A stretch of DNA of 64,000 nt, from positions 2,816,001 through 2,880,000 of the forward strand of contig OZ251539.1 of NCBI GenBank assembly GCA_965243135.1. The letters are read 5' to 3'. Below, piece by piece: positions 8,262-54,370 of the stretch (the first letter of the stretch is position 1; each line of letters opens with the position of its first letter). The translations under genes were made by a program, and so were the position numbers. The stretch comes from Alphaproteobacteria bacterium. GTDB taxonomy: Bacteria; Pseudomonadota; Alphaproteobacteria; MPNO01; UBA830. Under the pieces are notes generated by a model. It was not told the origin of the DNA, did no database searches, and saw only the letters and a program-made list of their open reading frames with translations.

Positions 8262-8425
8262 CCATGGTTCCTCCCCTCTCCCTCGGCAGGAAGACCTTAC
8301 GGTCGCCTCGCATTGGAGCAATCAAAATATCAGGTTGTTGTTTTCGAGGGAACCAGTGGTTATGTTTCCTACCCCATACCTGTTCCGCTTGGTAGGATTT
8401 GACAACGGAAAGTAGATCGATGGCG

Positions 8426-37270: not shown

Positions 37271-37989
37271 TTCCAAACTCCGGCACTCTGTGCAGCATGT
37301 AACCGGGAACTTGTTGAGTGGGCGCAATCCCCGTATATTCCCCGTGTGGTCAAAGTCCACCAAATTGTTTTTATTGTCAAGTGTGAGATGTCGGGCGTTT
37401 GTGGTGTGCCATTTTTTGTCGGCTTGGCACCCGGCTGGCACCCTACGGATCGCCTTGATCGCCCTTCGGCACGCAGGGTCGCACGGACGACTGGTTCCGA
37501 TCCCTGTCCCCGTCGGGGCGAAGCGGAACCATGACGCCATCGAGCGAGACGGTGCACGAAGCCGCTTCCTCCTGCACCGTTTCCACCTCGGACGTCCCTA
37601 GCCGTCCTTTCCTTCTCGTTCCAGCGCTCGCCGCCCTCGTCGACAGACGCGCAACTGGACGGGCCTCCCGGCTCCGTTCGTCGGCGTGCGGTGGCGCAGG
37701 AGCATCGCTGCGAGCCGCCGGTTTCTACAGCCTCGGGCTTTCGGCGTCCACGCCAAGGTAAGCGTTCGCTGCCCGGGGGACGAAAAAAATTTGCCCCGGG
37801 GACAGGAAACGATTCGCTGACCCCTGTATATCGCCTTTATGGAGTTGGCGACACCAGATTACGCACCTTCGGTGCTTTTTTGATTCCAACCCTTTGATAT
37901 AGCGCGTTCTTTTCTCGCGAACCGATAGATCGGGAAGGCAGAGGATTCCTCCTGCTTCCCCGGTTGCAACAGCTTCGGGGGAAAGAATC

Positions 37990-39090
37990 ATGGTCCGTCT
38001 CAACCAGCGCAGGGTCGACGCCCTCAAGCCGCGCAAGTCCGCTTACGACGTTCGCGACGACGATCTCAAAGGGTTCGGCGTCCGGGTGCTGCCGTCCGGC
38101 GGAAAACGATACTTCGTCCACAGCCAGCACGAAGGACGGCGCGTCTGGAAGGTCGTCGGTAAAGACATCGCCGAGGAGGAGGCCCGCGCGCGGGCGAAGG
38201 CCGCCCTGGCGGCGATCCGAAACCGGACGTCGGCGATCGTGCCGGAACAGACCCTGTTCGAGGCGGTTGCCGAGGAGACGTTCGAGCGTTACGGGCGGAA
38301 CTGGAAACCGCAGACGTTCGAGGTCAACCGCGGGTACTACAGGAACCATATCCTGCCGTGGTTCGGGGGACGCCAGATCGCCGAGATCGCGCGGCGGGAC
38401 GTCCGGCGCTGGTTCGCTTCGTTGCGCGATACGCCGGCGGCGGCGGATCGCTCGGCGCCGGTCCTGTCGGTGATCATGCGGCAGGCGGAGGTCTACGGCT
38501 ACCGGACGGAAGGCAGCAATCCGTGCACGGGCATCCGGCGCTATCGGCGGCAGGGGCGCGAGCGGTTCCTGACGGCGGCGGAACTCCGCCGCCTCGGAGC
38601 GGTCCTGGCGAGCCGCGAACCCGACTGGCGGGTCGCGGCGGTGCGGCTTCTGCTGCTGACCGGTTGCCGCAAGAGCGAGATCCTGACCCTGCGATGGATC
38701 GGCTACCGCGAAGGCAATCTGTTCCTGGAGGACAGCAAGACGGGGCCGCGAACGGTCTGGCTGTCGTCGGCCGCCCGGCAGGTTCTGGACGGGCTGGAGC
38801 GACGAAGCAGGTGGATCTTTCCATCTCCAGCGAAGGACGGCGCCCTGAGCGCGGAAGCGATCGGGCGTTTCTGGCGGAAAGCGAGGGCGGAAGCCGGACT
38901 GCAGGACGTCCGGCTGCACGATCTGCGCCATACCTACGCCAGCGTGGCGCTTCGGCACGGCGAGACCGTGCTGACCATCGGCCGGTTGCTCGGCCACAAC
39001 GATCCGGGGACGACCCTCAAGTATGCGCATCTTGCCGACGCGGCGGTCCACGAAGCGGTCGAGGCGGTTGGCGCGGTCTTGGAGGGATGA
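37990..39090 (+). CDS. Tyrosine recombinase/integrase with arm-binding domain (copy 1)
   Basis: GFGVRVLPSGGK, TGCRKSE, KTG, HDLRHTY, LLGH, Y. Confidence 0.93.
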   Translation: MVRLNQRRVDALKPRKSAYDVRDDDLKGFGVRVLPSGGKRYFVHSQHEGRRVWKVVGKDIAEEEARARAKAALAAIRNRTSAIVPEQTLFEAVAEETFERYGRNWKPQTFEVNRGYYRNHILPWFGGRQIAEIARRDVRRWFASLRDTPAAADRSAPVLSVIMRQAEVYGYRTEGSNPCTGIRRYRRQGRERFLTAAELRRLGAVLASREPDWRVAAVRLLLLTGCRKSEILTLRWIGYREGNLFLEDSKTGPRTVWLSSAARQVLDGLERRSRWIFPSPAKDGALSAEAIGRFWRKARAEAGLQDVRLHDLRHTYASVALRHGETVLTIGRLLGHNDPGTTLKYAHLADAAVHEAVEAVGAVLEG

Positions 39091-39093
39091 GAC

Positions 39094-40188
39094 ATGCGGA
39101 CTCGTCTGACCGACGCCAAGATCGCCGCGCTGCGGCCGCGCGAACGGGAGTACACGGTCTGGGACGAGCGGATCTCCGGGCTCGGGGTTCGCGTGCGTCC
39201 GTCCGGGCATCGCAGCTACGTTTTTCTCCGCAACGGTCGCAGGGCATCGCTCGGCCCGGCAGCGCTCAAGGCGGTCGACGAGGCGCGCCGCGAATGCCTC
39301 GAGGGCGTCGCGCCTGCGGAAACGGCACCGTCGTTCGGGGATTTCGTCGCGAACCAGTGGAAAACCGCCTGCTGCATGCATTTCAAGCCGTCGACGCAAC
39401 GGACGGTGAACTCCATTCTGAACAGCCAGTTGCTGCCGACCTTCGGTTCCACGCCGCTCGACCGGATCACCGCGGCGGAAGTCGGCCGCTGGTTCGACCG
39501 GTACAGCCGGACGGCGCCCGGCGGAGCCAACGGGACGCTGGACATATTACTGCAGATAATGAACCATGCGATCATGCGCGGTCACATCGAAAGGAATCCG
39601 GCGCAAGGCATCAAGCGGAACAGGCGTCCAAGGATCACCCGCTTCCTGTCGCGAGAGGAACTCCGTCGTCTCCATGCGGAACTGGACGTTTGCGGGCGCG
39701 GGACGCGCAAGCAGCAGGCGGACATCATCCGTCTTCTGCTGGCGACCGGCTGCCGGAAGAACGAAATCGTGAAGCTGCAATGGCGCGAAGTGGACGAAAC
39801 CGCGCTCAATCTCGCGGACAGCAAGACGGGACCGCGAAAGGTCTTTCTGAACGCGCAGGCCCGCGCCATCGTCGAGCGCCAGATCCGGACCGGGAGCCCA
39901 TACGTCTTTCCGTCGGCATCGGACCCGCGGCTCCCGCAATCGGACAAGCTTCCGCTCTGGCACGAGGCGAGGAAGCGGGCGGGGATCGAAGATGTCCGCC
40001 TGCACGATCTGCGGCATACCTTCGCCAGCCACGCCGTCATGCAGGGGGTTCCGCTGCCGGTCGTGGCGCGGCTGCTCGGTCATCGGGACGTGCAGATGAC
40101 TTTGCGCTACGCGCATGTCGCCGACAGGGATGTCGAGGCGGCGGCGGAACGGATAGGAAGCACAATCTCAGGTCTTCTGGACGGTTAG
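39094..40188 (+). CDS. Tyrosine recombinase/integrase with arm-binding domain (copy 2)
   Basis: VWDERISGLGVRVRPSG, TGCRKNE, KTG, HDLRHTF, LLGH, RYAH; starts 3 bp after copy 1. Confidence 0.93.
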   Translation: MRTRLTDAKIAALRPREREYTVWDERISGLGVRVRPSGHRSYVFLRNGRRASLGPAALKAVDEARRECLEGVAPAETAPSFGDFVANQWKTACCMHFKPSTQRTVNSILNSQLLPTFGSTPLDRITAAEVGRWFDRYSRTAPGGANGTLDILLQIMNHAIMRGHIERNPAQGIKRNRRPRITRFLSREELRRLHAELDVCGRGTRKQQADIIRLLLATGCRKNEIVKLQWREVDETALNLADSKTGPRKVFLNAQARAIVERQIRTGSPYVFPSASDPRLPQSDKLPLWHEARKRAGIEDVRLHDLRHTFASHAVMQGVPLPVVARLLGHRDVQMTLRYAHVADRDVEAAAERIGSTISGLLDG

Positions 40189-40343
40189 CCCCATCTGCAC
40201 ACCAGCGCGATCCAGCCAGATACGGAACCGTCCGTTAAACTTTCGACCGCCGCAAGAGTTCCAATTTGGCCGGACGATCCTGAAACAGGAACTGATAGAT
40301 CGTAAAGAACGATGGATGTTCCTGCCGCAACCATTTCCGAATG

Positions 40344-41558
40344 TCATTCTGTCCTGCAGCCGTTATGCGGATTCCAAATTAATCTTCCTTCCGGTTCCAT
40401 TTTCGAGGGATTTTCCAAAAAGGCCAAGCCATCTCTGTACATGACATATTCGGTACCTCGGAGTTCCGTTGAAGAAAAACCGGCAATTTCGGACTTGGGA
40501 ATATCAGGATGTTCCGTCGGAATTTCTCTCTCTACACCAATTATATGGCTCAAATAATCTAGAAAATTTTGACAAACTTGTTTTGCGATAGCGAAATTCC
40601 CAAAGATTTGGGGAGCAATTTCGTAGTAATATCTTGGAAAAAAGTGATATCTTGGAAAAAAGTGATAGGGATCTGAAAAAATAACAAATTCCTTATCGAC
40701 GTAACGCAAAATTTCAAATTCTAAATCATAATCCTCTGGGCGGTCTATATGGAACAGGATCCACTCAATCCATCTTACGATTTCCGTTGCGCCCAAGAGA
40801 GAGAAATTAGAGCGAAACGTCGCCATAACGGGCGGCATCGGCGGATTTTCGGATTTCGAACCAGCTGAAGACGATCCGGAAGGCTGCGTCACGGGATTGG
40901 ATGTGTCCGCGACGCATAAAAATGAACCCGACCTGTTGGGTCTCGATCCAAATCCGATACTGTAACCGTTTATCACGTTTCCGTACTGGGAATGGACAGC
41001 CAAATTTGGCGTCACCTGCCTTTCGAGTTTTTTTATTGTCCTTCTCCTTATTTCTTTCGATGTAATTTTTTTGGCGAAGGATCCATGCGCTTCCACGATT
41101 ACGATCCCATGCCCGGCAGCGGGACCATCGCCGTAAATGAAATCCGGACGCGGCCTAGAAGTTGAAAATGAGCTCTCTCCGTTGTCGCGCCATGTATATC
41201 CCAGCTGATTCATGACCAGATCGGCGATCCCTGCTCCTACGCTGCCTGCAAAGGACGCCCTTGCCGCATCGGCTAGACCTCCAAAGTCAGGTGAAAGAGT
41301 GAATGAATGCCTGTTTTCGATCAACAATAAGGCTTCAATGAAGGATTTTATGCCCAAAAAAACAAGCATTCCGGGGGACGCCTGCCGCAGTGTTTCGGTT
41401 CTTGCTATCGATGCCGCAAGAGCGATCCGGTTAAAGGTCAGTTTCGCGGGAAGACCCGGAGGACGAAAGCCGGGGGTAACCCGGCTGACGCCGGCATGGC
41501 AGCGGTCAATTGGATTTACCTCAATCGGGGTAGGCAGGCTGGCGACCGGCCTGTTCAT
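40344..41558 (-). CDS. Hypothetical protein with a PD-(D/E)xK-like motif
   Basis: RPDFIY...IVIVEAHGS; ATGA overlap with the type ISP stop; AT-rich. Confidence 0.6.
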   Translation of the reverse strand: MNRPVASLPTPIEVNPIDRCHAGVSRVTPGFRPPGLPAKLTFNRIALAASIARTETLRQASPGMLVFLGIKSFIEALLLIENRHSFTLSPDFGGLADAARASFAGSVGAGIADLVMNQLGYTWRDNGESSFSTSRPRPDFIYGDGPAAGHGIVIVEAHGSFAKKITSKEIRRRTIKKLERQVTPNLAVHSQYGNVINGYSIGFGSRPNRSGSFLCVADTSNPVTQPSGSSSAGSKSENPPMPPVMATFRSNFSLLGATEIVRWIEWILFHIDRPEDYDLEFEILRYVDKEFVIFSDPYHFFPRYHFFPRYYYEIAPQIFGNFAIAKQVCQNFLDYLSHIIGVEREIPTEHPDIPKSEIAGFSSTELRGTEYVMYRDGLAFLENPSKMEPEGRLIWNPHNGCRTE

Positions 41559-44500
41559 GATCGGCCTTCCGTAAAGACATCGGGGAGATTTCGGACAGTG
41601 CTGTCGGTTTCGACGCTGACGTGGACGATGCGGCGAATGGCGGCGATCAGGTCGCACGGGTCTTCGAACCAACCATTTGGGTCGTTGACTATGCCGCTCT
41701 TGCTATCCTGTACGATCCTGTATCGGTCGATAAACCATTCCAGCGGCGTTCTTCCGTTGATCTGATATCGGTGAGCGGCATCGGGAATGCCGCTCAGGCG
41801 GACATGATCGTTTATCCGCAGGGTCGTTTTTTCTTCGCCGATGAACCGCATTGCCCGCTCGCCGAAGCGAAAATGTTCCGGTCGAGGCTCTCCGGAACCG
41901 GAAAACTCGACATCGAGCGGGTACTCGTCGCAGTTCTCGTATTGAAGATGAAGATCGGCGAGTCTGCATCCGGCCTCGGCGAAAGCATGGAAATCCGCCG
42001 CGAACGGTATGCGAGGCAATTCCTTGGTCAAGTCGTTCGCGAAACGCTCCCGATAATCCGGATGATGCAGGACTGCGTAGACGTAATCGAATATCGCGTC
42101 TTTCGAGATGGAGTTGTCGCCGTATTTTATGCGAAACACGCGAAGGGCCGTATCGGTGACGTTGTCCGCTCGTTCGAGTTCCGGTTCAAGCCCCGGAAGC
42201 TCGTTCTGCGCGTTTTCCGAGCGCTGATAGCGGTATCGCGGAAAGCACTGACCGAATTCGATCAAATGAAGATCCGGTATCGAATCCACAATCAATGCGG
42301 AAAACGGCTTTGTAGAACCCATACCAGGAAGGCATATGGCCACGTTCCGCTGCGACCTGCCCGGAAAAATCGAGTCGATCTGATATTTCCTTTGAGCGAA
42401 GAAATGATCGGCATATAAATTCATCGCAATAAACGGACGATAAGTTGTCTTGCAGATGTTGTTTTCTTCGAACGTTCTGTATTTTCTTCTTCTCAGATTA
42501 TCCTTTAGCGTTTGATCCCAATGCAGCCTGGAAGAAGATACGACGACGTCGACGATTTGATTTATTTCCAACTTTGAAACACTTTTCTTGTTTTGCAGAG
42601 CTTTCTCGAATTTCTTGAGTGCGTCACAGTAGTCGTCAACCATCCTACGCGCTTTCTCCGTGCAAGCAGAGCGAGAAAAATTGTACACATACGCATCCCT
42701 GCCGGTCTTGTAACCGTTGCTGAACAGTTTGAATATCGCCTCGTCCGTTTTGCCGGCCTTCGCGTCCTTCGAACCTATCGGATAGAGGTTCCCGAACTCC
42801 TCGCTGCGTTGTCCGATCCAGTCGTGATGGCGGTCGGGCGCGATTTCCTTCCAGTCGTCGATGCCCGCGATCGATCCCTTTTCCTGCAGGAAGGTCAGCT
42901 TCTCCTCGCGCGTCAGGTAGTCCCCGACGTCGCGATAGAGGATGCGGCAGCCGTCGCGGTCCGCCTTCGGGTTGCGGACCAGCACCGTGATCGCCACCGG
43001 CGCGCGGGATCCCTGCCCGAATACGTTATCTCCCTCCTTGCGTCGCAGTTCTCCCGAAGTCCTCGCGTTGCCCCGCAGGTTCAGGACGTGGATGGACGTG
43101 AACTCCTCGGCGAGGCAGGCCCGCACGCCGGAATCGACATGGCTGTCGATCCACGAGCCGTTGGTGACGACGGCGACGACGCCCTGCTCGCCGATGCGGT
43201 CGGACGCCCAGCGGATCGCCATCTTGTAGGTGTCGTAGAGGCTGTTCTTGTTCGTCGCCCGCGATCGCGCGGCGTAGGTCTCGGCGACCCGGCGTTCGAG
43301 TTCCGGATAGTCGACGTTCGGATTGTCGTCGGCTGAACTCTTCTGCCATGCCGACCAAGGCGGGTTGCCGACGACGACCTGGATCGGCAGGTTCTGCTGC
43401 CGTTCCACGCGCTCGCTGTTGCCGGGAAGCCATTCCTTCGGAAAACCGGTCCGCTCCGTGTGAAGGTTGAAGGTGTCGGCAAGCGCGATGCCATTGAACG
43501 GTTCGTACCCCCCCCCCCCCCCCCGCCGGCCGTGGAAGGCCTCTTCGATATGGACCGCCGCGATGTAGTAGGCGAGGAGAACGATCTCGTTGGCGTGAAG
43601 TTCCCCGCGGAACTTCCGTTCCAGATCGGCGTCCGCGATCAGCGCGGACTGGAGAAGCCGGACGAGGAAGATGCCGGTGCCGGTGAACGGGTCGAGCACG
43701 TTGACGCCCTCGTCGCTCAGCGAGCGACCGAATTCCTCCCTCGATACATGGTCGGCGCTGCGCAGGATGAAGTTCACCACCTCGACCGGCGTATAGACGA
43801 TGCCGAGCTTGTCCGCCTCCTTCTTCAGCGCCGTCGCGAAGAACTTCTGGTAGAGTTCCATCAGCACATGCTGGCGCGCGTCGCTGTTGTCGAGGCCGCG
43901 AGCGCGCATTCGGACGCTCTCGTAGAAGCTCTCCAGACCCTCCAGTTCGTTTCCCAATCCGAATTCCCCGAAATCCTCCCGCAACGCGTCCAGCGCCTGC
44001 GCCACCGGATTGCTCTTCGCGAATTCGTAATGCTCGAACAGCGCCTCGAAGACCGGCTGCGTCAGGACATGCTGCGCCATCATGTCGACGGCGCCGACGC
44101 GGGTAATCGACTCGTTGATCGACGCCTTGAGTTCGCCGAGAAAGGCGTCGAACCATTCCCGCAGGGTCTCGTTGGCAGAATCGTCCAGAAGGTTTCCGAT
44201 CCGGAGGACCAGACGCGCGAAGATGTCGGCGACGTCCTTCGCCCAGCTTTCCCAGTACCGCCGGTCGCCGCATTTCTCGACGACCCCGGCGAAGATCGCG
44301 CCGGGCGGAACGTCGAGCGGCGGAAAGGGCAGCGTCCGTTCGGAGGGTTCGTCGTTCCCGGCGGATCCGCCGTTTCCGTCCCAGATGACGATTCGCGGGG
44401 TAGGCGTGTTGTTGAGGTCGATCCTGTTGATCTCGGCGTCGAACCGGTCGTCGTGGGAACGCAGGGAGCGCAACACGCCCCAGACGGCGGCGAACCGCTC

Positions 44501-46312
44501 GTTGTCGTCCAGAGCGCGGTCCGGATCGACATCGGGCGGAACGGCGACCGGCAGCACGATGTAGCCGTATTCCTTGCCCTCGGCCTTGCGCATGGCCCGA
44601 CCGACCGCCTGCACGATGTCGACCTGGGAGTTGCGCGGACTCATGAACAGCACCGCGTCGAGCGCCGGCACGTCGATCCCCTCCGACAGGCAGCGCGCGT
44701 TGGTCAGTATTCGGCAGGCGCTCCGATCGCCCTCCTTCAGCCATTCGATCCGCCGCTTGCGGTCGAGCGCGTTGTGCTGTCCGTCGACGTGCTTGGTCTC
44801 GCACCGGAAATCCGCAGGACGCTCGTCCTCGGGCAACAGTTCCATGGCCTGCGCGACGATCGGTCCCCAATGCCGCTCCAGTTTCTGCGAATCCTTGATC
44901 CTGCCGTTGAACGCGATCGCCCGGCCCAGCGGCATAGATTCGTCGGCGTTCTCCGGATTCTGAAGCACCCGCCAGCACCCGACGATCTTCGCCGCGTCGG
45001 TCAGGTTGATCTCGCCGTCGCCCTCGGCCAGATGCGCCCGGAGCGCCGGATCCGCCGCATCCTCCCGCACCACGAGGATCACCACCTTGTAGTCGGACAG
45101 CAGGTTCCGTTCGATCGCCCGCGAAAACGGCAGACGATGGAATTCGGGGCCGAAAGTCTCCTCGTCGTCCATCGAGAACACTTCGACGGCCCGGTTCGCC
45201 GCTTTCGCCTTCGCCCCCTCGGCATAGATGCGCGGCGTCGCGGTCATGTACAGCCGCTTTTCCGCCGCAATCTTCTCCGCGTCGTGGATCAGCACGAACG
45301 GAGACGTCGACTTGTCGGGGATTTCCACGCCGGTCGTCCGGTGGGCTTCGTCGCAGATCGCGAGATCGAACCCGGGAGCGCCCTGCGCCTGCGCCCGCTC
45401 CACCAGAGGCAGCGACTGGTAGGTGCAGAAAACCACCGTCATCGCGTCGTTCCCCGCGCCCCGAAGCGCTTCCAGGATCGCGTCCGGATTCGTGGTGACC
45501 GGAATTTCCAGTTCCTCCATCGAGGCGTCCTCGTTCGTGCGGCCGGCCCGCGTGTCGGAGCAGATCCCGACGTAGCGGTGCGGAATCTCCCGGTGGGTCG
45601 CCCACTCGCGCATCGATTGCTGGAAGAGGGAGATCGACGGAACCAGATAAAGCACCCGCCGGCCGACGCCGGCAACGGCTTCCGCGATGCGCAGCGCCGT
45701 GAAGGTCTTGCCGGTGCCGCAGGCCATGACGAGCTTGCCGCGGCCGCGGTTCCTGAAACCCCCGACCGCGTCGTCGAAAGCCTCCCGCTGATGCGGGCGC
45801 AGGCTGAACGCCTCGCCCCGCCACGAAAGATTCTCGGGTTCCTCGCTGGCCAGATCCGGCCAGTCGAAAGGCCGGCCGGCCAGATCGCCGAAACGCAGGA
45901 CGCCGCAAGACGGCTTCAGGCCCTTGACGATCTTGAGAGCGTTGGGCCCCCAGCCGTCGCCGGTGTCGACGACGATGCGGGCCGTGAAGGGATCGCGCGC
46001 CGACGCGGAAATGAAAGAATCGAGATCGGGCTTCGAAATTCGCGTATCGGAGGCGTAGCACTTGCACTGGATGGCGCAGAAGCCGCCGTCCCGCTCATCG
46101 GCGACGAGATCGATTCCGATGTCTCGTCCGTCGAAGTCCGGCCTGATTTCCGCCCATTCGGACCACAACCAGACATTCGAAAAGCGTTCCGCATAGAGAG
46201 GATCCCTGACGAAGAAGGTCTTCATCAGCCGCTCGAACAGACGGCCCTTCTCCGCCTGCGACTCGGCGATCGCCCGGATGTGGTCCAGCGTTCTCTGAAA
46301 TCCGTCGATCAT
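41555..46312 (-). CDS. Type ISP restriction-modification enzyme (Mrr-like nuclease, SF2 helicase, N6-adenine MTase, TRD), LlaGI/LlaBIII-like
   Basis: GIDLVA..AIQCK; MACGTGKT, DEAHRT, MTATP, QAVGRAMRK; LDPFTGTG, GNPPW, NLRGN. Confidence 0.93.
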   Translation of the reverse strand: MIDGFQRTLDHIRAIAESQAEKGRLFERLMKTFFVRDPLYAERFSNVWLWSEWAEIRPDFDGRDIGIDLVADERDGGFCAIQCKCYASDTRISKPDLDSFISASARDPFTARIVVDTGDGWGPNALKIVKGLKPSCGVLRFGDLAGRPFDWPDLASEEPENLSWRGEAFSLRPHQREAFDDAVGGFRNRGRGKLVMACGTGKTFTALRIAEAVAGVGRRVLYLVPSISLFQQSMREWATHREIPHRYVGICSDTRAGRTNEDASMEELEIPVTTNPDAILEALRGAGNDAMTVVFCTYQSLPLVERAQAQGAPGFDLAICDEAHRTTGVEIPDKSTSPFVLIHDAEKIAAEKRLYMTATPRIYAEGAKAKAANRAVEVFSMDDEETFGPEFHRLPFSRAIERNLLSDYKVVILVVREDAADPALRAHLAEGDGEINLTDAAKIVGCWRVLQNPENADESMPLGRAIAFNGRIKDSQKLERHWGPIVAQAMELLPEDERPADFRCETKHVDGQHNALDRKRRIEWLKEGDRSACRILTNARCLSEGIDVPALDAVLFMSPRNSQVDIVQAVGRAMRKAEGKEYGYIVLPVAVPPDVDPDRALDDNERFAAVWGVLRSLRSHDDRFDAEINRIDLNNTPTPRIVIWDGNGGSAGNDEPSERTLPFPPLDVPPGAIFAGVVEKCGDRRYWESWAKDVADIFARLVLRIGNLLDDSANETLREWFDAFLGELKASINESITRVGAVDMMAQHVLTQPVFEALFEHYEFAKSNPVAQALDALREDFGEFGLGNELEGLESFYESVRMRARGLDNSDARQHVLMELYQKFFATALKKEADKLGIVYTPVEVVNFILRSADHVSREEFGRSLSDEGVNVLDPFTGTGIFLVRLLQSALIADADLERKFRGELHANEIVLLAYYIAAVHIEEAFHGRRGGGGGYEPFNGIALADTFNLHTERTGFPKEWLPGNSERVERQQNLPIQVVVGNPPWSAWQKSSADDNPNVDYPELERRVAETYAARSRATNKNSLYDTYKMAIRWASDRIGEQGVVAVVTNGSWIDSHVDSGVRACLAEEFTSIHVLNLRGNARTSGELRRKEGDNVFGQGSRAPVAITVLVRNPKADRDGCRILYRDVGDYLTREEKLTFLQEKGSIAGIDDWKEIAPDRHHDWIGQRSEEFGNLYPIGSKDAKAGKTDEAIFKLFSNGYKTGRDAYVYNFSRSACTEKARRMVDDYCDALKKFEKALQNKKSVSKLEINQIVDVVVSSSRLHWDQTLKDNLRRRKYRTFEENNICKTTYRPFIAMNLYADHFFAQRKYQIDSIFPGRSQRNVAICLPGMGSTKPFSALIVDSIPDLHLIEFGQCFPRYRYQRSENAQNELPGLEPELERADNVTDTALRVFRIKYGDNSISKDAIFDYVYAVLHHPDYRERFANDLTKELPRIPFAADFHAFAEAGCRLADLHLQYENCDEYPLDVEFSGSGEPRPEHFRFGERAMRFIGEEKTTLRINDHVRLSGIPDAAHRYQINGRTPLEWFIDRYRIVQDSKSGIVNDPNGWFEDPCDLIAAIRRIVHVSVETDSTVRNLPDVFTEGRS
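43508..43524 (-). repeat. Homopolymer G17 (coding strand) inside the type ISP MTase domain
   Basis: Run of 17 C on the plus strand; encodes RGGGGGY. Confidence 0.9.
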
Positions 46313-46459
46313 TTGTTTTCCTCGCGGCAACCGTCTGACTTCCTTTATCCTGACGCTCGTTCGTAAAGTCGAATCCCGATGCCGGGTCTGCCGAAGCGGC
46401 GCCGCGGGCCGGAGGCGGGTTCCCGCGGCAAGCGGGGTGCGGCGGACAGTCCGCGCCGC

Positions 46460-47125
46460 TCAAGGCCAGACGATCTCGCAGCGCGCGTTTTTTCCCGCCC
46501 GGCGCGCCGCGGCGATGCAGTCCCGGAGTTCGGGGCCGTAGCGGTACCAGAGATAATCCCGCCAGCCGTCCGAGGGGTCCGGGAGAACGCCGCGGTCGCG
46601 CTGAAGCAGCGCGCCGGCGTACGCGGCGGCAGCCACGGCCGCAGCGACGGCGAGGGCCAGCGCCAACCGGCGGAGAAAGGAGCGCCAACCGGCGCGGGGC
46701 CGCAGAGATTCCTGAAGGTCCGCCACGTTGTCGGCGAGGCGGCTCTCGCGCGCGGCGCGGTCGCGGATCTCCTTCAGGACCTCCGAAGCGGGCAGCGCGC
46801 GCTCGGCGACGGCGGCGATGCCGGCGGCGAGCCGGCCTTCCGTTTCGGCGAGGAGGAGGCGGAGGTCTCTCCGGTTCAGCGGCGGGTCCGCCGGAGCCGG
46901 CGCAGTCCGGGAGGCCGCCTCGCCCGGCGCCGGATCCGCGCCGGAGACTCCGCCGTGCAGCGCGGGAGGCGCGGCAGGGCTCGAGTCCCGCTTTTCGCCG
47001 CGCGGCGGCGGGGCCGCCCGCTCGCGCCTGCGGAGTTCCTCTTCGATCCTGCGGTCTTCGTCCACCGGCGGAACGTCTCCGTCGTGGTAGGATGGCGGGA
47101 TGGTCGCGACCGTCACCGCCATCAC
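46460..47125 (-). CDS. Hypothetical protein with one transmembrane helix, divergent from the relaxase (start uncertain)
   Basis: Hydrophobic LALALAVAAAVAAAAYAGALL; Trp/Cys-rich C-terminus. Confidence 0.5.
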   Translation of the reverse strand: MMAVTVATIPPSYHDGDVPPVDEDRRIEEELRRRERAAPPPRGEKRDSSPAAPPALHGGVSGADPAPGEAASRTAPAPADPPLNRRDLRLLLAETEGRLAAGIAAVAERALPASEVLKEIRDRAARESRLADNVADLQESLRPRAGWRSFLRRLALALAVAAAVAAAAYAGALLQRDRGVLPDPSDGWRDYLWYRYGPELRDCIAAARRAGKNARCEIVWP

Positions 47126-50100
47126 GTCGTCGTCCTCGACAGTGCACTATTTCGAGAAGGACGGCTACTACGCGAAGAACGATCCCGAGCACCGGCGCGC
47201 CAGCCGCTGGCGCGGCAGCGGCGCGAAGGAGCTCGGGTTGCGCGGACAGGTCGATCCCCGCAGGTTCGAGCGGATCCTGCAGGGCCACGTTCCCGGAACC
47301 GATCTCCGTCTCGGGCGCGTCCGCGACGGGGAGCACCAGCACCGTCCGGGGGTGGACGTGACGTTTTCGGCGCCGAAGTCGGTGTCGCTCCAGGCGCTGC
47401 TGCACGGCGACGAGGCGGCGATGCGGGCGCACGACGAGGCGGTCGCGGCGACGCTGGAGTTCATCGAGGCGCGGCTGCTGGAGACCAGGGTCTACGACCC
47501 GAAGACCGGGCGGCGGAACCGGACGCGGTCGCGGAGCCTGGTGGCGGCGACGTTCCGCCACGTGGCGAGCCGCAACCTCGACCCGCAGCTGCACACGCAT
47601 TGCGTGATCGCGAACATGACGCGGGGGCCGGACGGGAAGTGGCGGAGCGTCGAGGCGACTTCCCTGCACCGGAACGCCCGGCTGATCGGGACGCATTACC
47701 GCAACGAACTGGCGAAGCGGTTGCGGGACCGCGGCTACGCGCTGGCGCCGGCGATGGTGGGCAAGATTCCGGGATTCGAGATCGCGGGCTACGGGAAGTC
47801 GACGCTGGAGGCGTTTTCGAGTCGTCGGCGCGAGGTTCTGGACTACATCCGGAAGAAGGGATGGACGTACGACGCGGCGCGGGCGCAGGCGGCGACGCTT
47901 GCGACGCGGCGGCGCAAGGCGGAGCCGCGCCGGGAGGAGCTGGAGGCGCTGTGGCGGCAGCGCGCCCGGGATCTTGGAATCGCGACCGGGGGACGGCGGC
48001 AGCGGCCGGGGCGAACGGGAAGCGGGCCGTCGGCGCTGGAGATCGTGAGCCGGGCGGCGGAGCGTCTGGAGGAGCGGAGTTCGGTGCTCGCGGCAAGCGA
48101 GCTGACGGCGCTGGCGCTGGCCCATTCTCCGGGGCGGCACGGGATCGCCGACATCGACGCGGCGATCCGGCAGCTTCAGCGCGACGGCCACCTGATCGCG
48201 GCGAAACGGTCGCGGACGGGGCCGGCGTTCGTCACCGACCGGGCGGCGCGGGCGAAGAAAGAGATCGCCTCCCGAATGAAGAAGGCGCTCGGCGCCGCGG
48301 CGCCGCTGGCTTCGGAACGAGCGGTCGAGGAACGGCTGGCGGGAACCGACCTCTTCGCCGGACAGAAGGACGCGGTTCGAACGATCCTGCTGAGCGCCGA
48401 CCGGGTGGTCGGGGTGGAAGGCTATGCCGGGGCCGGGAAGACGGCGACGCTGCGTTGCGTCCTCGATCTCGCCGGCGATCGCCCGGTTCTCGGCCTCGCG
48501 CCGTCGGCGAGCGCCGCCCGCGCCCTGGCGCGCGAGAGCGGCATCCCGGCCCGGACCTTGCAGTCCTTTCTCTGCCGGCACCGCGACGTCGCCGACAACG
48601 CGGCGAACGCCGAAACCCTGGCCGTCCGGCGCGCGGAGTTCGGCGGCGCGTTGCTGGCGGTCGACGAGATGTCGCAGGCGAGCGCGGCGCAGGCGCGCGA
48701 CCTGATGCGGATCGCCGACCGGCTCGGCGTCGGGCGGCTGGCGCTGATCGGCGACAGGAAGCAGTTGCGGGCGGCGGAGGCCGGCCAGCCCTTCCGGCAG
48801 TTGCAGGCGGCGGGGATGAAGACGACGGACCTGCGGCAGCGCTGCCCGGACCTGAAGGCGGCGGCGCTCGACGCGGGCCGTCCGGCGGCGCCCGGCAGGT
48901 TCGGCGACAACCTTCACGAGGTTCCGGCCGACGAGCTCGGCGGCGCGGCGGCGGCGATCTGGCTGCGGCTGTCGCCGGAGGACCGGGCGGAGACCGCGAT
49001 CCTCGCGCCGACCCGCGAACTGCGGGCGGCGATCAATGACGCGGTGCGCGAGGGGCTGGCGCAGGAAGGCGCGCTGCGCGGGCGGGAACTGGAGATCGAG
49101 ACCCTGGTCGATCTCGGCATGACGCGGGCGCAGAAGGGCGACGTCCGCAACTGGCGGGAAGGCGACGTGGCGGTGTTCGCGTACGACCTCTACCCGTACC
49201 GCATCCGGGCCGGGGAGGCCTGCGCGGTGACCGGGATCGCGGACGGCCGGGTGACGCTGGCCCATCCGGACGGCAGGCCGCGGCGGATCGACCCGTCGGG
49301 CTACCTCCGCTACCGGCTGGACCTGTTCGAGGCGCGCCCGATCCGCATCCGGGCGGGGGACGCGATCCGCTGGACGCGCAACGACGTCCGGCGCGGGCTG
49401 ATCGACGGCGAGCGGGCCGAGACGCTCCGGATCGGCACCCGCGCCCTGCGGCTGCGGATCGCGGGCGGCGGGGAGTTGACGTTGCGGCGCGACGATCCGC
49501 ATCTGCGGCACGTCGCGCACGCCTGGGCATCGCCGGCGGCGCAGGGGATCGGGCGGAACAACGTGATCGCGGCGCTGGATTCGGGGCACGGGCAGCTGAG
49601 CGACCAGCGGACGCTCTACATGGAGATCAACCGGGCGCGGCGAAACGCGGTGGTGCTGACCGACAACCGGGAGGCGCTGATGGAGGCGCTCGAGGCCGGC
49701 GAGCGGCTGGCGGCGGGGGAGGATCTCCGGCCGGCGCCCGGCAAGAAGCTGGCGCCGGTCCGCCGTCCGGGCCCGAGCCGGGCGGAGGTCTACCGCCAAT
49801 GGCGGACGGACCGCGATCGGCACGCCGGGGCGGCGGCGCGGGCCGGGCTGCATCCGATCCATCTTCCCGGCTACGAAGCGCTGCGCGCCCGGCTGGGGGA
49901 TCTCGCGCTGCCGCCGCGCCTTCCGGAAAGTCTCCGTCGGCAGGTCGCGGGCGAAATCGTCCGGCACGACGAGGCGGTCGCGGAGGCGGCGCGCGCGGCG
50001 CGATGTCTGGAAAGCGTCGAGACCGGTCTGGCGCGGCGCGAGGCCGGATTGGCGCCCGCGTCATACGAAGACTGGCGCTTCGAACTGGAGTCGGCCGTCG

Positions 50101-51002
50101 CCGCCGGGCGCGGCGTTCTGGAATTCCTGGAACCGGATCGGCGGGCGCGGATGGAGCGCGGCATCGAGGAAGCGGAAGGCCATCTCGCCCGCGACGACGC
50201 CGCGTTCGCCGAAAGGACCGCGGTCGACCGCTTCAGGGAATGGGAGGAACGCGGCGACATCGGGGAGGCGCGGACGCTCGCCGCCGACCCGGCGTTGCCC
50301 GAGGAGCTCCGGCAGCGCGCGGAACGGGTCGTTCGCGCGCTGGAGGAACCCCGCCGGGAAGCGGGGACGGAGCGCGAAGTGGAACGGAGGGCGCGAACGG
50401 CGCGGCAGGCGCCGGCGCGGCGAGAAGCCGAACGGGCGCGGGCGGCGCTGGACGCGAGCGCCGAGACGGTCTCTCGCGGACGTCGGGCGGTCGCGAACCG
50501 TGCCTTGTCGGAGGCCGAACGCAGGCGGCGCGAAGACGCTTTCGAACGCGCCGGGGAGGCGCTCGACCGGCGCTGGCGCGACCTCCGCAGCGGCTGGAAA
50601 AGTTACCGGGACGAAGTCCGGGCCGAAGGCGGCCATCCCTTCGCCCGCGACGACTGCAAGCCCTGGATCGACGCGGCGCGGGCGCTCGCCGCGGAACCGC
50701 GCCTGCCGGACGGCAGGCGCCGCCTGCTCGCGGACTTTCTTCGCGGCCGCGACGAAGCATGGCCCGCCGACCGCGAGCGTCTGGCGGCCCTGCGGGACGA
50801 CTGGAAAGCGGTGCGCGACGAAGCGCGGCGGCAGCGGGCGTCTCCCTTCGAAATGCCCGAATGCGCGGCGGTGATCGACCGCATGCGGGACATGGAACGG
50901 TCCGACAACCTCGCCGAAAGCGAGAAGCGCGGCCTGCGGGAAATCGTCGGCGACCACGACGAGCATGTCTCCCGGCAGCGCGGGAGATCTTGGGGCGCGT
51001 AG
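47100..51002 (+). CDS. MOBF (TrwC/TraI-type) relaxase-helicase
   Basis: YF..DGYY, DVTFSAPKSVS, H..SRNLDPQLHTHCVIAN, FSSRR; EGYAGAGKT, VDEMS, LIGDRKQL. Confidence 0.92.
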   Translation: MVATVTAITSSSSTVHYFEKDGYYAKNDPEHRRASRWRGSGAKELGLRGQVDPRRFERILQGHVPGTDLRLGRVRDGEHQHRPGVDVTFSAPKSVSLQALLHGDEAAMRAHDEAVAATLEFIEARLLETRVYDPKTGRRNRTRSRSLVAATFRHVASRNLDPQLHTHCVIANMTRGPDGKWRSVEATSLHRNARLIGTHYRNELAKRLRDRGYALAPAMVGKIPGFEIAGYGKSTLEAFSSRRREVLDYIRKKGWTYDAARAQAATLATRRRKAEPRREELEALWRQRARDLGIATGGRRQRPGRTGSGPSALEIVSRAAERLEERSSVLAASELTALALAHSPGRHGIADIDAAIRQLQRDGHLIAAKRSRTGPAFVTDRAARAKKEIASRMKKALGAAAPLASERAVEERLAGTDLFAGQKDAVRTILLSADRVVGVEGYAGAGKTATLRCVLDLAGDRPVLGLAPSASAARALARESGIPARTLQSFLCRHRDVADNAANAETLAVRRAEFGGALLAVDEMSQASAAQARDLMRIADRLGVGRLALIGDRKQLRAAEAGQPFRQLQAAGMKTTDLRQRCPDLKAAALDAGRPAAPGRFGDNLHEVPADELGGAAAAIWLRLSPEDRAETAILAPTRELRAAINDAVREGLAQEGALRGRELEIETLVDLGMTRAQKGDVRNWREGDVAVFAYDLYPYRIRAGEACAVTGIADGRVTLAHPDGRPRRIDPSGYLRYRLDLFEARPIRIRAGDAIRWTRNDVRRGLIDGERAETLRIGTRALRLRIAGGGELTLRRDDPHLRHVAHAWASPAAQGIGRNNVIAALDSGHGQLSDQRTLYMEINRARRNAVVLTDNREALMEALEAGERLAAGEDLRPAPGKKLAPVRRPGPSRAEVYRQWRTDRDRHAGAAARAGLHPIHLPGYEALRARLGDLALPPRLPESLRRQVAGEIVRHDEAVAEAARAARCLESVETGLARREAGLAPASYEDWRFELESAVAAGRGVLEFLEPDRRARMERGIEEAEGHLARDDAAFAERTAVDRFREWEERGDIGEARTLAADPALPEELRQRAERVVRALEEPRREAGTEREVERRARTARQAPARREAERARAALDASAETVSRGRRAVANRALSEAERRRREDAFERAGEALDRRWRDLRSGWKSYRDEVRAEGGHPFARDDCKPWIDAARALAAEPRLPDGRRRLLADFLRGRDEAWPADRERLAALRDDWKAVRDEARRQRASPFEMPECAAVIDRMRDMERSDNLAESEKRGLREIVGDHDEHVSRQRGRSWGA

Positions 51003-51032
51003 CGCGCGCCTCTTCCCGTGCGCCGCGAAGAA

Positions 51033-51544
51033 CTATCGCCGGTTCCGTTCGTAGACCGCGGTGCCGATTCGCTCCGCCCTTTCGGCGTCGAACACCTCGT
51101 CGAGCAGCGCCTTCATCTCGGCGTAGCGCCCCCTTCGCGTCATCTCGTCGAGCTTCGTCTCGAACAGGACGCGCACCGCATTGGCCATGTTCGGCGACCC
51201 CGCCGCGTCCTGGAACATCTGTCCCGACATGTCCGCCGCAATGCGCGTCACGGCGTCGCAAAGCGCGCGCTGCTCGTCCGCGCCGAGGACCAATTGCGCG
51301 TCCTTTTCCGGGTCGCGGGGCTCCCGCGTCAGCGCGCGGTCGACGACGTAGCGCGACATCGACTTGCCCTCGGCCGCGGCCCGCTCGCGGATGCGTTCCC
51401 ACTCCGCTGGCGTGCACGAAATCGAGTGGACCGCGACATCGACTTGCCCTCGGCCGCGGCCCGCTCGCGGATGCGTTCCCACTCCGCCGGCGTGCACGAA
51501 ATCGAGTGGACCGCGGCCCGAACCTTGCCCGGCTGCCGGCTCAC
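51033..51544 (-). pseudogene. Ribbon-helix-helix/MobC-like gene frameshifted by an 80-bp tandem duplication
   Basis: HSISCTPAEWERIRERAAAEGKSMSR occurs twice, 80 bp apart (about 51352-51514). Confidence 0.7.
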
Positions 51545-51897
51545 TTCCCGCCTCCGTCGAAGAGTCCGGGAAGGACGTCCCGCACTTCGTTTCGAGGCGG
51601 TGCCGTCCGCATCTTGCGCTCCGCCCGGTACAGGAACTCCACCGCCTCGCGCAGCGTGACCTCGCTCCCGGGAAGCGGCCGGAGAAGATCCTGGGTCGCC
51701 ATTAAAAGGAGGTTGACCCGGTTGTAGAGAGCGCGCTGCTCCTCCTCCGAAAGCGCCAGCCGGTGCGCCGCGCCGTCGTCCAGCGCGCACCCCAGAACGA
51801 ACCGCGAGACGCTCGTTCCCGCCGCCGCCGCCCGCTCCCGGATCGTCTCCCATTCGAGCGGCATGCAACTCACGCTGTACTGCCGGGACCGCGCCAT
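51541..51897 (-). CDS. Ribbon-helix-helix/MobC-like protein
   Basis: YSVSCMPLEWETIRERAAAAGTSVSRFVLGCAL; GGGAGAGG RBS. Confidence 0.7.
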   Translation of the reverse strand: MARSRQYSVSCMPLEWETIRERAAAAGTSVSRFVLGCALDDGAAHRLALSEEEQRALYNRVNLLLMATQDLLRPLPGSEVTLREAVEFLYRAERKMRTAPPRNEVRDVLPGLFDGGGK

Positions 51898-52220
51898 CTT
51901 TCCTCTCCCGCGATCTCGGCGTCCGCCGCCGCGACGATCCCGTTCCAGTCCTCGACCGCGCCCGCTTCGCCGTAGCGCAACTCCTCGATGCGCGACAGGA
52001 CCAGCACGTCCCGCGCCATCCGGCGCTGCAGCGAAACCGGCAGCGGGCCGTCGTCCCGCGGCGGGTCCAGCAGCCGCTCGACGACGAATCGGGAGATCGT
52101 CTTGCCGGCCGCTTCGGCGCGTTCGGCGATCCGCCGCCACTCGCTGTCGGTGGCCATGACGCAGCGCGCCTTGCGCTTTTGACCGCCGAAATCCCCGGAC
52201 GGTTTTGCTTCCTTGACCAT
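51870..52220 (-). CDS. Ribbon-helix-helix/MobC-like protein
   Basis: CVMATDSEWRRIAERAEAAGKTISRFVVERLL. Confidence 0.7.
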   Translation of the reverse strand: MVKEAKPSGDFGGQKRKARCVMATDSEWRRIAERAEAAGKTISRFVVERLLDPPRDDGPLPVSLQRRMARDVLVLSRIEELRYGEAGAVEDWNGIVAAADAEIAGEERWRGPGSTA

Positions 52221-53988
52221 ATGGTTTCATTTGCCTCTACAATGGTTACGCCCTGAAAAGAAAAAAGGATTGCTTGCTTTTCCGGGCGCCTGATTGTAGA
52301 TAGCGGAATCGTCCCAGGATGTCACGGACGGCCCGGCCGGGAGTCGTCTTGTAGATTCCCCGCCTGTCGGAAAGTCTCTTGACATGCGCCGTAAAGGAAT
52401 GTATATACAGCATATTCGCGAGGAAGGGAACCGCTGCCGGCAGGCTTATATATCGACAGGGCGAAGGATGGGTTGTCCACACCAGATTTTTGATGCGACC
52501 GACCGACAGTGGGTCTTGCTGCTGGCAATGACCCTCGGGCAGCGGGACGAGGCGATTCGGCAGCGGGACGAGGCGCGCCAGGAAGCGGAGGCGTCGCGCT
52601 GGAAGGAGGTAAGCGCTCGTCAGCAGGCGACGTTCTGGAAAACGCAGCACCGCCGGGCGCGGGCGCGTGCAGAGGCGGCGCGCAACGAGCTGAAACGCCT
52701 GAAGTCCGTCTCTTCGGTGAACGAGCTCAAGCGGGAAGCGGGCCGCCTTCGGCACGAGCTTGAGAGCAACACATTCTTCGACGACGCGAGGCGGCAACTC
52801 GACGACCTGCGAGGCGCCGCAGTGCAAGCCGTTGCAGTCCTTGCTGCGTCAAGGCTTGGAGGTCTTCGTCGACAGCCGTGCCGATGGACAACAACCTTGC
52901 CGAGCGCGCCCTGCGCGGCGCGGCTGTTGGGCGCAAGCTCTCGTTCGGCTCGTTCAGCGAGGCGGGCGCGCAACTGACCGGGCTGCTCTTCTCCGTGTAC
53001 GCTTGAACTGGCCGGCCTCTCGCCGCACCACTGGCTCCGCGATTATCTGCAAGCCTGCGCCGAACATGGCGGACGAGCGCCCGAAGAGGCGCATGCCTGG
53101 CTTCCCTGGGGCGCCGACCCGAAGCGCGTCCGCACCTGGCGCGCCGCGGCTCCGCAGGGGCCATGAGCTCTGCGGGCGGGCCGAGGACGAACTCAACCTG
53201 ATTCGCGACCGCGCAATGGAACCCGCCTCTCAAACGCACGCCCCTTTCACGCGTGCGAGCGTCTCGACTGGCGCAAACCCAACGGCGGCGTCAAAGACAT
53301 GAGCGCCCGCGTCGCCCTGTTGCGGATGGAACGCGACGGCCTCTGCCGCCGTCGCAGGTCCGCCCGCGTTCGCCGCTCCGCCGTCTCCCGAAACCGAACC
53401 GCCCCCGTTCCCAACTCCCGACCGTCTCGACCAGGTCCGTCCGCTGCGCACCGAACCCGTCCGCAACGCCAGCGAGGGCCGTCTCTGGAACGCCTTCCCG
53501 CTACCTCGGCTTTACGCCCATGCCCGGCGCACAGCACTTCGTCCGCTCCGCAGAGGGCGAACCGCTGGCCGCGCTCGGCTTCGGCGCCGCCGCGTGGAAG
53601 ATTGCGCCACGGGACAAGCTGATCGGTTGGGACCTCGAATGCCGCGGCCGCAATCTGCCCTTCGTCGTCAACAACGCAAGGTTCCTCCCCTGGGTCAGAA
53701 TCAAACGCCTTGCATCCCATGTCCTCGCACAGGTCGAGCAACGTTTGCCCGACGACTGGGACCGCCGCTACGCTCTGCGTCCCGTACTGCTCGAGACCTT
53801 CTGCGAAACGCAGCGATGGAACCTGCTACCGTGCGGCCAACTGGATCCGGGTCGGCAAAACGCAGGGCCGCGGCAAACTCGACGTGAAAAACGAGTATGC
53901 GCTGCCGGTCAAGGATGTTGAAGCCCCTGCGGCGGGACTGGAAAAAGATCCTCAATCGCAGACCATCACCCGGGTAGCGAACACTTAC

Positions 53989-54370
53989 GCCGAAGGTGCG
54001 CCCACAGGTGTGGAACACGATGCTGGAGGAGGAGCATCCGTGTGGTGCGGTGCCGGTCCGTTGGTCGGTTGTCAGTTACGGAACCTGGTGGGGTCGGCGC
54101 ATGGCTGGCTGAGGGCTGTCGGGTTCGCGGCCTCTGCGCACAAGCTCGAGTGCCGCGCCCTTCGGCTGGGACGACGCGGGAAGGTGCGCAGAGAACTCGT
54201 GTGGCAGCGTCTGGAGGTCGAACGTTCCTCGGTGCGCAACGGCGCCCGAGATCGGAAGGCCCGCGACGCACGGGTCGCTCTGCGCTGGTGTACGGTGGAC
54301 CTGCCGGTACAGGTGCGGAAAGAGGAACCGGCTTCCCTTTCCGCACTAGCGCAGGTCTCCCACGCTGCAA
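53989..54370 (+). pseudogene. Fragment of a DUF4338-fused IS4-family transposase
   Basis: WNTMLEEEHP..AGPLVGCQLRNLVGSAHGWL.AVGFAASA followed by RKARDARVALRW..VDL. Confidence 0.5.

Follow-up and report, generated by a model that had tools for sequence, protein, structure and literature searches.

The stretch of DNA analysed here (hereafter the window; 64,000 nt) corresponds to positions 2,816,001–2,880,000 of the genome of an alphaproteobacterium, which is assembled as a single contig of 6.10 Mb with 65% GC (GCA_965243135.1, OZ251539.1). It contains an insertion of 14,628 bp (37861–52488), flanked on both sides by the 10-bp core ACACCAGATT, which splits a copy of an IS66-family insertion sequence (IS) 22 nt into its transposase open reading frame (ORF). 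This insertion is one integrative mobilizable element (IME) with matched ends, since the 10-bp repeat brackets the whole 14.6 kb, subterminal repeats are inverted relative to each other and the right end is homologous to that of a sibling element of the same genome. It begins with two adjacent tyrosine integrase genes, int1 and int2, and the family defined by this pair, with its apparently drifting target address, is a more interesting result than the link to IS66 itself. The features of the borders and of the host IS are as follows:

37758..37860, plus strand: left terminal inverted repeat (TIR) of the IS66-family copy and first 22 nt of its transposase ORF (ATG at 37839), through the repeat
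37851..37860, plus strand: attL copy of the 10-bp core ACACCAGATT
37863..37875, plus strand: left-end dyad GCACC-TTC-GGTGC followed by a T run, conserved in the family and terminator-like in a scan
37901..37921, plus strand: left subterminal inverted repeat, by local alignment to the reverse complement of 52415–52435
52415..52435, plus strand: right subterminal inverted repeat, within the right end homologous to the sibling's
52479..52488, plus strand: attR copy of the core ACACCAGATT
52489..53988, plus strand: remainder of the IS66-family copy, with an internal deletion of about 1 kb, a decayed DruA-like ORF and the right TIR (53964–53988)
21707..24380, minus strand: IS66-family copy B, uninterrupted, with an unoccupied site at 24282–24291

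The initial annotation had described a repeat-flanked insertion at the start of an IS66-family transposase gene, and this was confirmed: ACACCAGATT is present on both sides and the halves of the interrupted copy align to copy B (identity: 91.3% over 37758–37860, 81.9% over 52468–52765 and 87.3% over 52756–53413), which has the same ends as the interrupted copy (TIRs at 37758 and 53988). Within the window, the core occurs three times (the third at 24282–24291, minus strand, inside copy B) for 0.03 expected occurrences, three or more being found in 0 of 100 shuffles. Its other sites in the genome number six, of which four are IS66 starts, all unoccupied. Copy B and three further full genomic copies read ATGGAGTTGGCG-ACACCAGATT-TT across the site, where the core corresponds to codons 5–8 of the transposase. 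The subterminal inverted repeats lie at similar distances from their respective junctions, and no similarity between the attP and attB arms extends past the 10 bp. Insertion into the 5' end of the transposase gene is supported as a conservative event. Promoter scans of both element ends called none. By eye, an outward-facing TTGACA-17-TATATA can be seen at about 52379–52411, which fails the rule of the promoter scan; as a lead only, this candidate right-end promoter would face int1 in a circle.

IS66-family copies and fragments are abundant in this genome (66 blast pieces of at least 100 bp). Canonical IS66 elements carry a tnpA-tnpB-tnpC gene trio, and the family is characterized by TIRs beginning with GTAAGCG and by an 8-bp target duplication. 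Because the IS considered here has a single transposase ORF followed by a DruA/DUF4338 ORF instead of this trio, it is an IS66-family variant for which “tnpC” is a loose label. The DDE_Tnp_IS66 profile (PF03050) matches two other genomic copies (81.9 and 133 bits), while the interrupted copy is too decayed to score with it. The left part of the latter is 98.1% identical to a copy at 5.92 Mb in the genome, and about 1,030 bp, corresponding to copy-B positions 376–1405, are missing from its downstream half. Directly 3' of the core, it reads TTTGATGCG where other copies read TTTGCTTYGAAGCG, with five bases lost. The emptied site would read ATG GAG TTG GCG ACA CCA GAT TTT TGA, and, owing to this change after the core, the “restored” transposase ORF would stop at codon 9. 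The flanks are colinear with uninterrupted copies. The 8-bp target duplication seen in four other full IS66 copies (in copy B, offset by 3 nt) is absent from the interrupted one, and the transposase is split in the two other copies with ORFs listed. At 52468, an ATG reads through the core, in frame with the N-terminal transposase peptide of the decayed copy. Outside the window, at G000:C1:2511198-2511290 of the same genome, an IS66 left end breaks off within the core, after GGCGACAC, and is followed by unrelated sequence.

Nine ORFs, recognized by coding-type GC3 or family matches, tile the insertion:

37990..39090, plus strand: int1, tyrosine integrase of 366 aa with an Arm-DNA-bind_3 N-terminus (Pfam)
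39094..40188, plus strand: int2, tyrosine integrase of 364 aa (Pfam), beginning 3 nt past the int1 stop
40344..41561, minus strand: 405-aa ORF that fits no known family, lies in a low-GC stretch and overlaps the type ISP stop codon
41555..46330, minus strand: type ISP restriction-modification enzyme of 1591 aa (Pfam domains, PADLOC)
46460..47125, minus strand: 221-aa protein with one hydrophobic segment
47100..51002, plus strand: MOBF relaxase-helicase of 1300 aa (Pfam TrwC and AAA_30)
51033..51497, minus strand: ribbon-helix-helix (RHH) mobilization protein 1, NikA-like (34.8 bits, cut-off 27)
51541..51897, minus strand: RHH mobilization protein 2, NikA/MobA-like (Pfam, NCBIfam)
51870..52220, minus strand: RHH protein 3, with a weak NikA-like match (23.7 bits, below the cut-off of 27; E 5.5e-5)

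This content agrees with the initial annotation as regards the integrase pair, the type ISP enzyme, the MOBF relaxase and the three RHH genes (one of which falls below the Pfam cut-off), and also as regards the lack of a coupling protein and of a type IV secretion system (T4SS), for which the tiled ORFs leave no room. Int1 and Int2 are 37% identical to each other, both have a Phage_integrase domain (71.8 and 94.3 bits) and both keep, as read from the sequence, the catalytic-type arginine, lysine, H-x-x-R, histidine and tyrosine motifs, whose residues we take to have their usual catalytic roles. Along the type ISP protein, the domains follow the order Mrr_cat_2, ResIII, Helicase_C, ISP_coupler, N6_Mtase and Type_ISP_C (314.9 bits), which means that all features of the class (Mrr-type nuclease, SF2 helicase, coupler, N6 methyltransferase and type ISP specificity domain) are present in a single polypeptide. 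A 90.4%-identical copy of this gene (window 41606–46444), 4.8 kb long, lies at G000:C1:738186-743025. In contrast, the “nuclease-fold” label given earlier to the 405-aa ORF was not confirmed: it has no match in Pfam, PADLOC or NCBIfam, and its nearest named Atlas clusters, type II restriction enzymes, are found only at 0.79–0.81.

Regarding transfer functions, the relaxase scores 280 bits against the NCBIfam MobF model (cut-off 100), and the first RHH gene begins with a repeated N-terminal RHH motif, owing to an 84-bp tandem duplication (window 51352–51515, 98.8% identity). The 221-aa ORF matches nothing in Pfam, PADLOC or NCBIfam and has weak Atlas leads only. The genome holds three full coupling-protein-like genes outside the element, two of which adjoin paralogues of the 221-aa protein (G000:C1:483154-485065 and 5533887-5535741), the adjacent coupling-protein-like genes being in open frames of about 1570 aa. 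Since these paralogues directly adjoin coupling-protein-like genes, this suggests that the 221-aa protein belongs to a transfer module. The type IV coupling protein family PF02534 is found at four places elsewhere in the genome and at none in the element, and the VirB4 family, searched with the single model PF03135, has no match in the genome.

Three further int1-int2 pairs exist in this genome. Of these, the sibling at 5.92 Mb can be delimited: it is an insertion of 8.65 kb whose integrases are frameshifted, and it contains a relaxase remnant as well as a later IS66 insertion bearing its own 8-bp duplication. Its borders show a perfect 10/10 repeat, ACACCAGGCG, and its host is a different IS of 2.38 kb (DruA-like region and Tnp_DNA_bind), which reads ATACCAGGCG in three intact copies. 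Elements of one kind are therefore found at different sites with different repeats. Traces of an older sibling element, “O”, are found on either side of the interrupted IS66 copy:

37501..37721, minus strand: remnant of “O”, corresponding to the region after int2 in the 5.92-Mb sibling
53989..54020, minus strand: remnant attL of “O”, with 13 nt of its left end, then ACACCTGTGG, then a DruA-type IS

The first remnant is 79.7% identical to positions 4384–4581 of the sibling, in reverse orientation, and the DruA-type IS next to the second is the one that hosts the sibling. From these alignments, the host IS66 copy has replaced the int1-int2 module of “O”, which accounts for its missing target duplication. 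Nesting is thus seen both ways, with IS66 inserted into twin-integrase elements and one such element inserted into IS66. The idea that the whole could move in trans as a 16.2-kb IS66 unit is correct as to the presence of both TIRs and otherwise lacks support, considering the absence of a target duplication, flanks that show the replacement of an older element and the split transposase of the two other IS66 copies with ORFs listed. Finally, a third sibling-type right end, ending in ACACCGGCAC, lies 2.5 kb past the window end (G000:C1:2882520-2882740). It is probably a duplicated piece, because the IS66 terminal repeat is nearly equidistant in both cases (111 nt here vs. 118 nt in the 5.92-Mb sibling).

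A search with Int1 returned 70 loci in metagenome-assembled genomes, whose record titles name Alphaproteobacteria, Rhodospirillales, Acidobacteria, Vicinamibacterales, Dehalococcoidia and Longimicrobiales. The int1-type gene is directly followed by a full int2-type gene in 44 of the 70 loci and by a partial one in nine, while 11 have no second integrase, one is cut by a contig end and five show another arrangement (the best second match being int1-type in four of them and int2-type only in one). Close Int1 matches number 6 to 24 in individual genomes (E <= 1e-120). The family has a common layout: a conserved left module of 2.4 kb (dyad, int1, int2), variable cargo and a short right end, the subterminal repeat of which is inverted relative to the left end. 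In the left dyad (GCACC-N3/4-GGTGC), 94.6% of cells are paired over 37 sequences, with compensatory changes in two of the five pairs. For the junctions, 82 loci were examined, of which three were too short and 15 had no anchor; ACACC lies 5–7 nt upstream of the CGCACC..GGTGC dyad in 56 of the 59 unique anchored left junctions, and no other flank column rises above 0.5 bit. All printed flanks of homologous modules are unrelated to the IS66 start, and the flanking genes, judged by translation, are of diverse kinds (ABC ATPase, catalase-like, TauD-like). Modules that are 97% identical carry different variable halves (GCGCG, ATGCG, GGACG) next to ACACC, and two 97%-identical modules share their cargo once IS insertions are allowed for.

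Close relatives of the window element (>90% identity) recurring in IS66 starts were found neither in 60 related genomes nor in two pattern scans, in which the left-end pattern of the lineage gave 0 hits in genome_contigs and, in metagenome_contigs, one stretch that is an unrelated chance match; likewise, the right end of the window element was not found in the 60 related genomes searched. Genomes of the same genus contain six modules at 57–68% identity and, of the two examined, one sits in an apparent duplicated leader of another copy. The 2.4-kb module was also considered as an ACACC-bounded element of its own and rejected, since only 12 of 65 loci have an ACACC in the 90 nt that follow the int2 stop, a frequency estimated to be near chance.

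Several individual loci deserve mention. In one subfamily (L003 ~8298–8345, L014 ~8295–8335), the int2 stop lies within a sequence resembling a tRNA 3' half, from the anticodon loop to a CCA-less acceptor end; ARAGORN, run on three loci with such an int2 end, called no gene there. Two twin-integrase modules (L082/L083, G002:C1:3355327-3381919) are oriented towards each other across 25.6 kb that contain several IS copies, and back-to-back modules separated by a few hundred bases are seen in L015 and L043. The megaplasmid of Shewanella oneidensis MR-1 (L090, 8992–11489) bears an adjacent, overlapping pair annotated merely as integrases, of which the first is 42% identical to Int1. Among the plasmid matches listed, many have two or four matching places per record.

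Both ends could be defined for five elements, two of them in this genome. In the 51.2-kb element, attL reads ACACCGCGCG and attR ACACCTCGCG, and its right border was placed by an orthologous empty site, which reads ACACGTCGCG followed by the same right flank. The right-end motif of this lineage then served to identify a 14.0-kb element (ACACCGGACG / ACACCTGACG), the two flanks of which directly adjoin each other in two orthologues, and a 4.15-kb candidate (ACACCACCGG / ACACCATCGC). Both insertions checked against empty sites (51.2 and 14.0 kb) lie in ordinary chromosomal sequence. Across the five elements, the border repeats agree at 10/10, 10/10, 9/10, 9/10 and 8/10 positions, the five variable bases matching at 5, 5, 4, 4 and 3 positions for a chance expectation of about 1.25. 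The single mismatches fall at the first variable base, the target-type base being found once at attR and once at attL. Right ends are hard to find because these genomes are riddled with IS copies: no exact 9-mer repeat was found downstream of the left junction in loci of about 13 kb, 10-mers with at most one mismatch gave no convincing match in twelve 20-kb loci except L075, and blast searches with the reverse complement of each left end returned noise, even the positive controls being weak.

Taken together, these data make it likely that the window element belongs to a widespread family in which a heteromeric integrase pair acts on a fixed ACACC and a drifting overlap that has to match the target nearly, the IS66 start being the present match and not a dedicated site. 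The anatomy of the elements, their repeats, the family-wide junction pattern and the two empty orthologous sites are the observed part of this reading, to which we add heteromeric action, the position of the overlap, the tolerance of mismatches and present-day activity as proposals. Briefly, Int1 and Int2 would together form a heteromeric tyrosine recombinase; that the pair works as one enzyme is the most likely interpretation of two integrases that are adjacent and co-inherited. The core would comprise the fixed ACACC and about five variable bases forming the strand-exchange overlap, since the near-identity of this half at both borders suggests an overlap needing a near-matching target. The circular form would integrate wherever the target nearly matches the current 10-bp core of the element, with about one mismatch tolerated and inherited at one junction; single mismatches at the first variable base, with the target-type base at either border, are the pattern expected from replication of a heteroduplex overlap. 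From hop to hop, the variable half would drift, each lineage having its own preferred sites, as suggested by near-identical modules with different variable halves. According to the abstract describing the GInts, att variants arising at excision shift target specificity, which offers a precedent for such a drift (PMC5385486). The current core of the window lineage, ACACCAGATT, equals the IS66 start, and the main sites matching it in this genome would thus be the IS copies. Transfer would proceed through the MobF relaxase and the RHH accessory proteins, with a borrowed mating pore. Whatever its mechanism, the island in the window is real and looks intact, it has defence (type ISP) and transfer (MobF) cargo, and IS66 is for it a matching address rather than a dedicated dock.

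Several observations nonetheless weigh against this interpretation. Conserved adjacency is the whole of the argument for heteromeric action, and the sample with both ends comprises only five elements, the 4.15-kb candidate among them. Empty relatives often lack an exact ACACC, reading ACACG and AGACC, GCCCC and GCTCC, or ATACC instead; either this reflects ascertainment, or both junctions receive their ACACC from the element, which is not a prediction of the simple model. Two same-genus loci that were examined, with modules at about 60% identity, show no ACACC at the junction. In the remnant attL at 53989–54020, the variable half is TGTGG, unrelated to the AGGCG present in intact copies of the DruA-type IS. 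In L025, a search extending over 40 kb did not recover the missing half of the interrupted ABC ATPase gene. Finally, the contigs of four sequencing runs contain no excision or circle joint and no empty site: the joints from 37860 to 52495 seen in them have 10–11 extra letters, matching other IS66 copies.

In the reading closest to the initial annotation, the 5' end of the IS66 transposase gene would be a dedicated attB for the whole family or, failing that, for this lineage, much as a tRNA gene or dusA is for other islands. The perfect 10-bp identity with the IS66 start speaks for it, as do the presence of the same site in four further IS66 copies and the fact that both complete elements of this genome lie in insertion sequences. 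Yet all four other sites are unoccupied, the attP and attB arms are dissimilar beyond the 10 bp and the sibling has both a different IS and a different repeat. Elsewhere in the family, the junctions share ACACC alone, the printed flanks are unrelated to IS66 and the two verified insertions are in ordinary chromosome. We consequently regard a dedicated IS66 site as quite improbable: the earlier view of IS66 as the attachment site is only partly right, and it does not apply to this kind of element. The initial annotation had named homologues at unrelated sites with no shared core as the finding that would speak against it, and here the sites are indeed unrelated while a short core, ACACC, is shared. 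At the other extreme, specificity could be so low that only ACACC is needed, the next five bases being irrelevant and the IS location a harmless insertion that survived. Such a view fits a family in which ACACC is the sole flank signal, and a region that is a nest of mobile elements inserted in one another, IS66 itself having inserted into sibling elements. It is nevertheless unlikely given the variable bases of the five elements, which match well above the level of chance.

Two further explanations question the unity of the locus itself. The first is that a self-moving 2.4-kb twin-integrase module landed beside an older, unrelated relaxase island already present in IS66, which would be in line with the similarity among many copies stopping, at first sight, right after int2, and with an ACACCAG 10 nt past the int2 stop (at 40199). 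However, the 14.6 kb as a whole is bounded by the 10-bp repeat and by the inverted subterminal repeats, the sibling too has a relaxase remnant and the same right end, and copies that seem to share the module only do share cargo when IS insertions are allowed for; such a composite is thus very improbable. As for an assembly artefact that would have mis-joined IS66-family repeats to an unrelated island, short-read contigs do break at the IS repeat (one, for instance, begins at 37831), but contigs with 0 differences span attR (51458–52524 in runs X6 and X7, 52055–52524 in X9) and cover 37831–38983 across attL (X6, X7). As X6–X9 may come from the source sample, they are not independent; run X1, from another study, covers 51953–52492 with three differences. 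An artefact is therefore hardly credible.

A bolder formulation of the preferred reading, the drifting address, can be offered only tentatively. The family might represent an undescribed class of tyrosine-recombinase transposons, with two co-evolving P4-like integrases, a bipartite core and a rewritten 5-nt overlap acting as a heritable address, through which the window lineage would have become tuned to the region around the start codon of multicopy IS66. If the address does drift, the choice of target would be neither fixed, as in tRNA-specific islands, nor random, as in many transposons, but set by a short, heritable and changing stretch. This would let the family spread in sponge-associated bacteria of several phyla, to dozens of sites in each genome, and it would explain why a single 2.4-kb recombinase module is found beside very different cargo at dozens of sites per symbiont genome, as well as the nesting of mobile elements within each other in such genomes. 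For the window lineage, the IS66 start would provide several identical, harmless and themselves mobile landing pads. The integrase pair would also amount to a naturally re-addressable two-subunit system.

With respect to known systems, the window element is an IME by content, given its own recombinases, its att repeats in an interrupted target and its relaxase without coupling or mating-pore genes. It resembles other IMEs in that its integration module lies at one end, its borders carry direct repeats and RHH proteins accompany the relaxase. It departs from them in having two adjacent, co-inherited integrases instead of one and no recognisable excisionase, as well as a core with only five fixed bases and an insertion sequence as its site rather than a tRNA or housekeeping gene. 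The integrases specific to dusA are P4-like and have a DUF4102-type arm-binding N-terminus, as does Int1. The dusA islands also integrate into the 5' end of a protein-coding gene; as described, though, they rely on one integrase and one conserved gene target in more than 200 bacteria, whereas here the target gene varies from copy to copy (PMC4482086).

Prokaryotic transposons with tyrosine recombinases have been sorted, in the review text consulted, into five groups: integrative and conjugative elements together with IMEs (ICE/IMEs), SEs, GInts, RITs and Tn554 (PMC10214605). In the literature searched, which is an incomplete sample, adjacent P4-like integrase pairs with an ACACC core are not described. 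The GInts come close by their tripartite layout (recombinase operon, variable cargo and short 3' end), their imperfect flanking direct repeats and their excision-generated att variants able to shift specificity, which match the drift proposed here (PMC5385486). According to the same abstract, however, their ginABCD operon consists of three integrase-like genes and a small protein, whereas two integrases of about 365 aa and nothing else are conserved here, and the only match to a trio-integrase NCBIfam model, GmtZ, scores 18.4 bits vs. a cut-off of 600. RITs likewise have several tandem catalytic tyrosine recombinases and are multicopy in genomes, but these are three in number, with 34-bp terminal inverted repeats and, as described, no cargo or relaxase (PMC10214605).

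SEs resemble our family by their pair of catalytic tyrosine recombinases, their variable cargo and their small number of preferred sites, and the insertion of one of them into insJ of IS3, seen in E. coli, sets a precedent for the targeting of an IS gene (PMC9345347, PMC10214605). As described there, they are defined by four core genes (intA, tfp, intB and srap), with an unusually large IntB, by 19-bp terminal inverted repeats and by the absence of a relaxase, while a 6-bp “fingerprint” of the old site at attR makes attL differ from attR (PMC9345347, PMC10214605). Here, in contrast, the integrases are adjacent (3 nt apart) and of ordinary size (366 and 364 aa), no further gene is conserved and a relaxase is present. 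Moreover, unlike in SEs and Tn554, the two borders are identical in the window element and its sibling, and agree at 9/10 positions in two other elements. Altogether, the element is an IME by its content, and its recombination module, set apart by the descriptions of the multi-recombinase groups, fits none of them.

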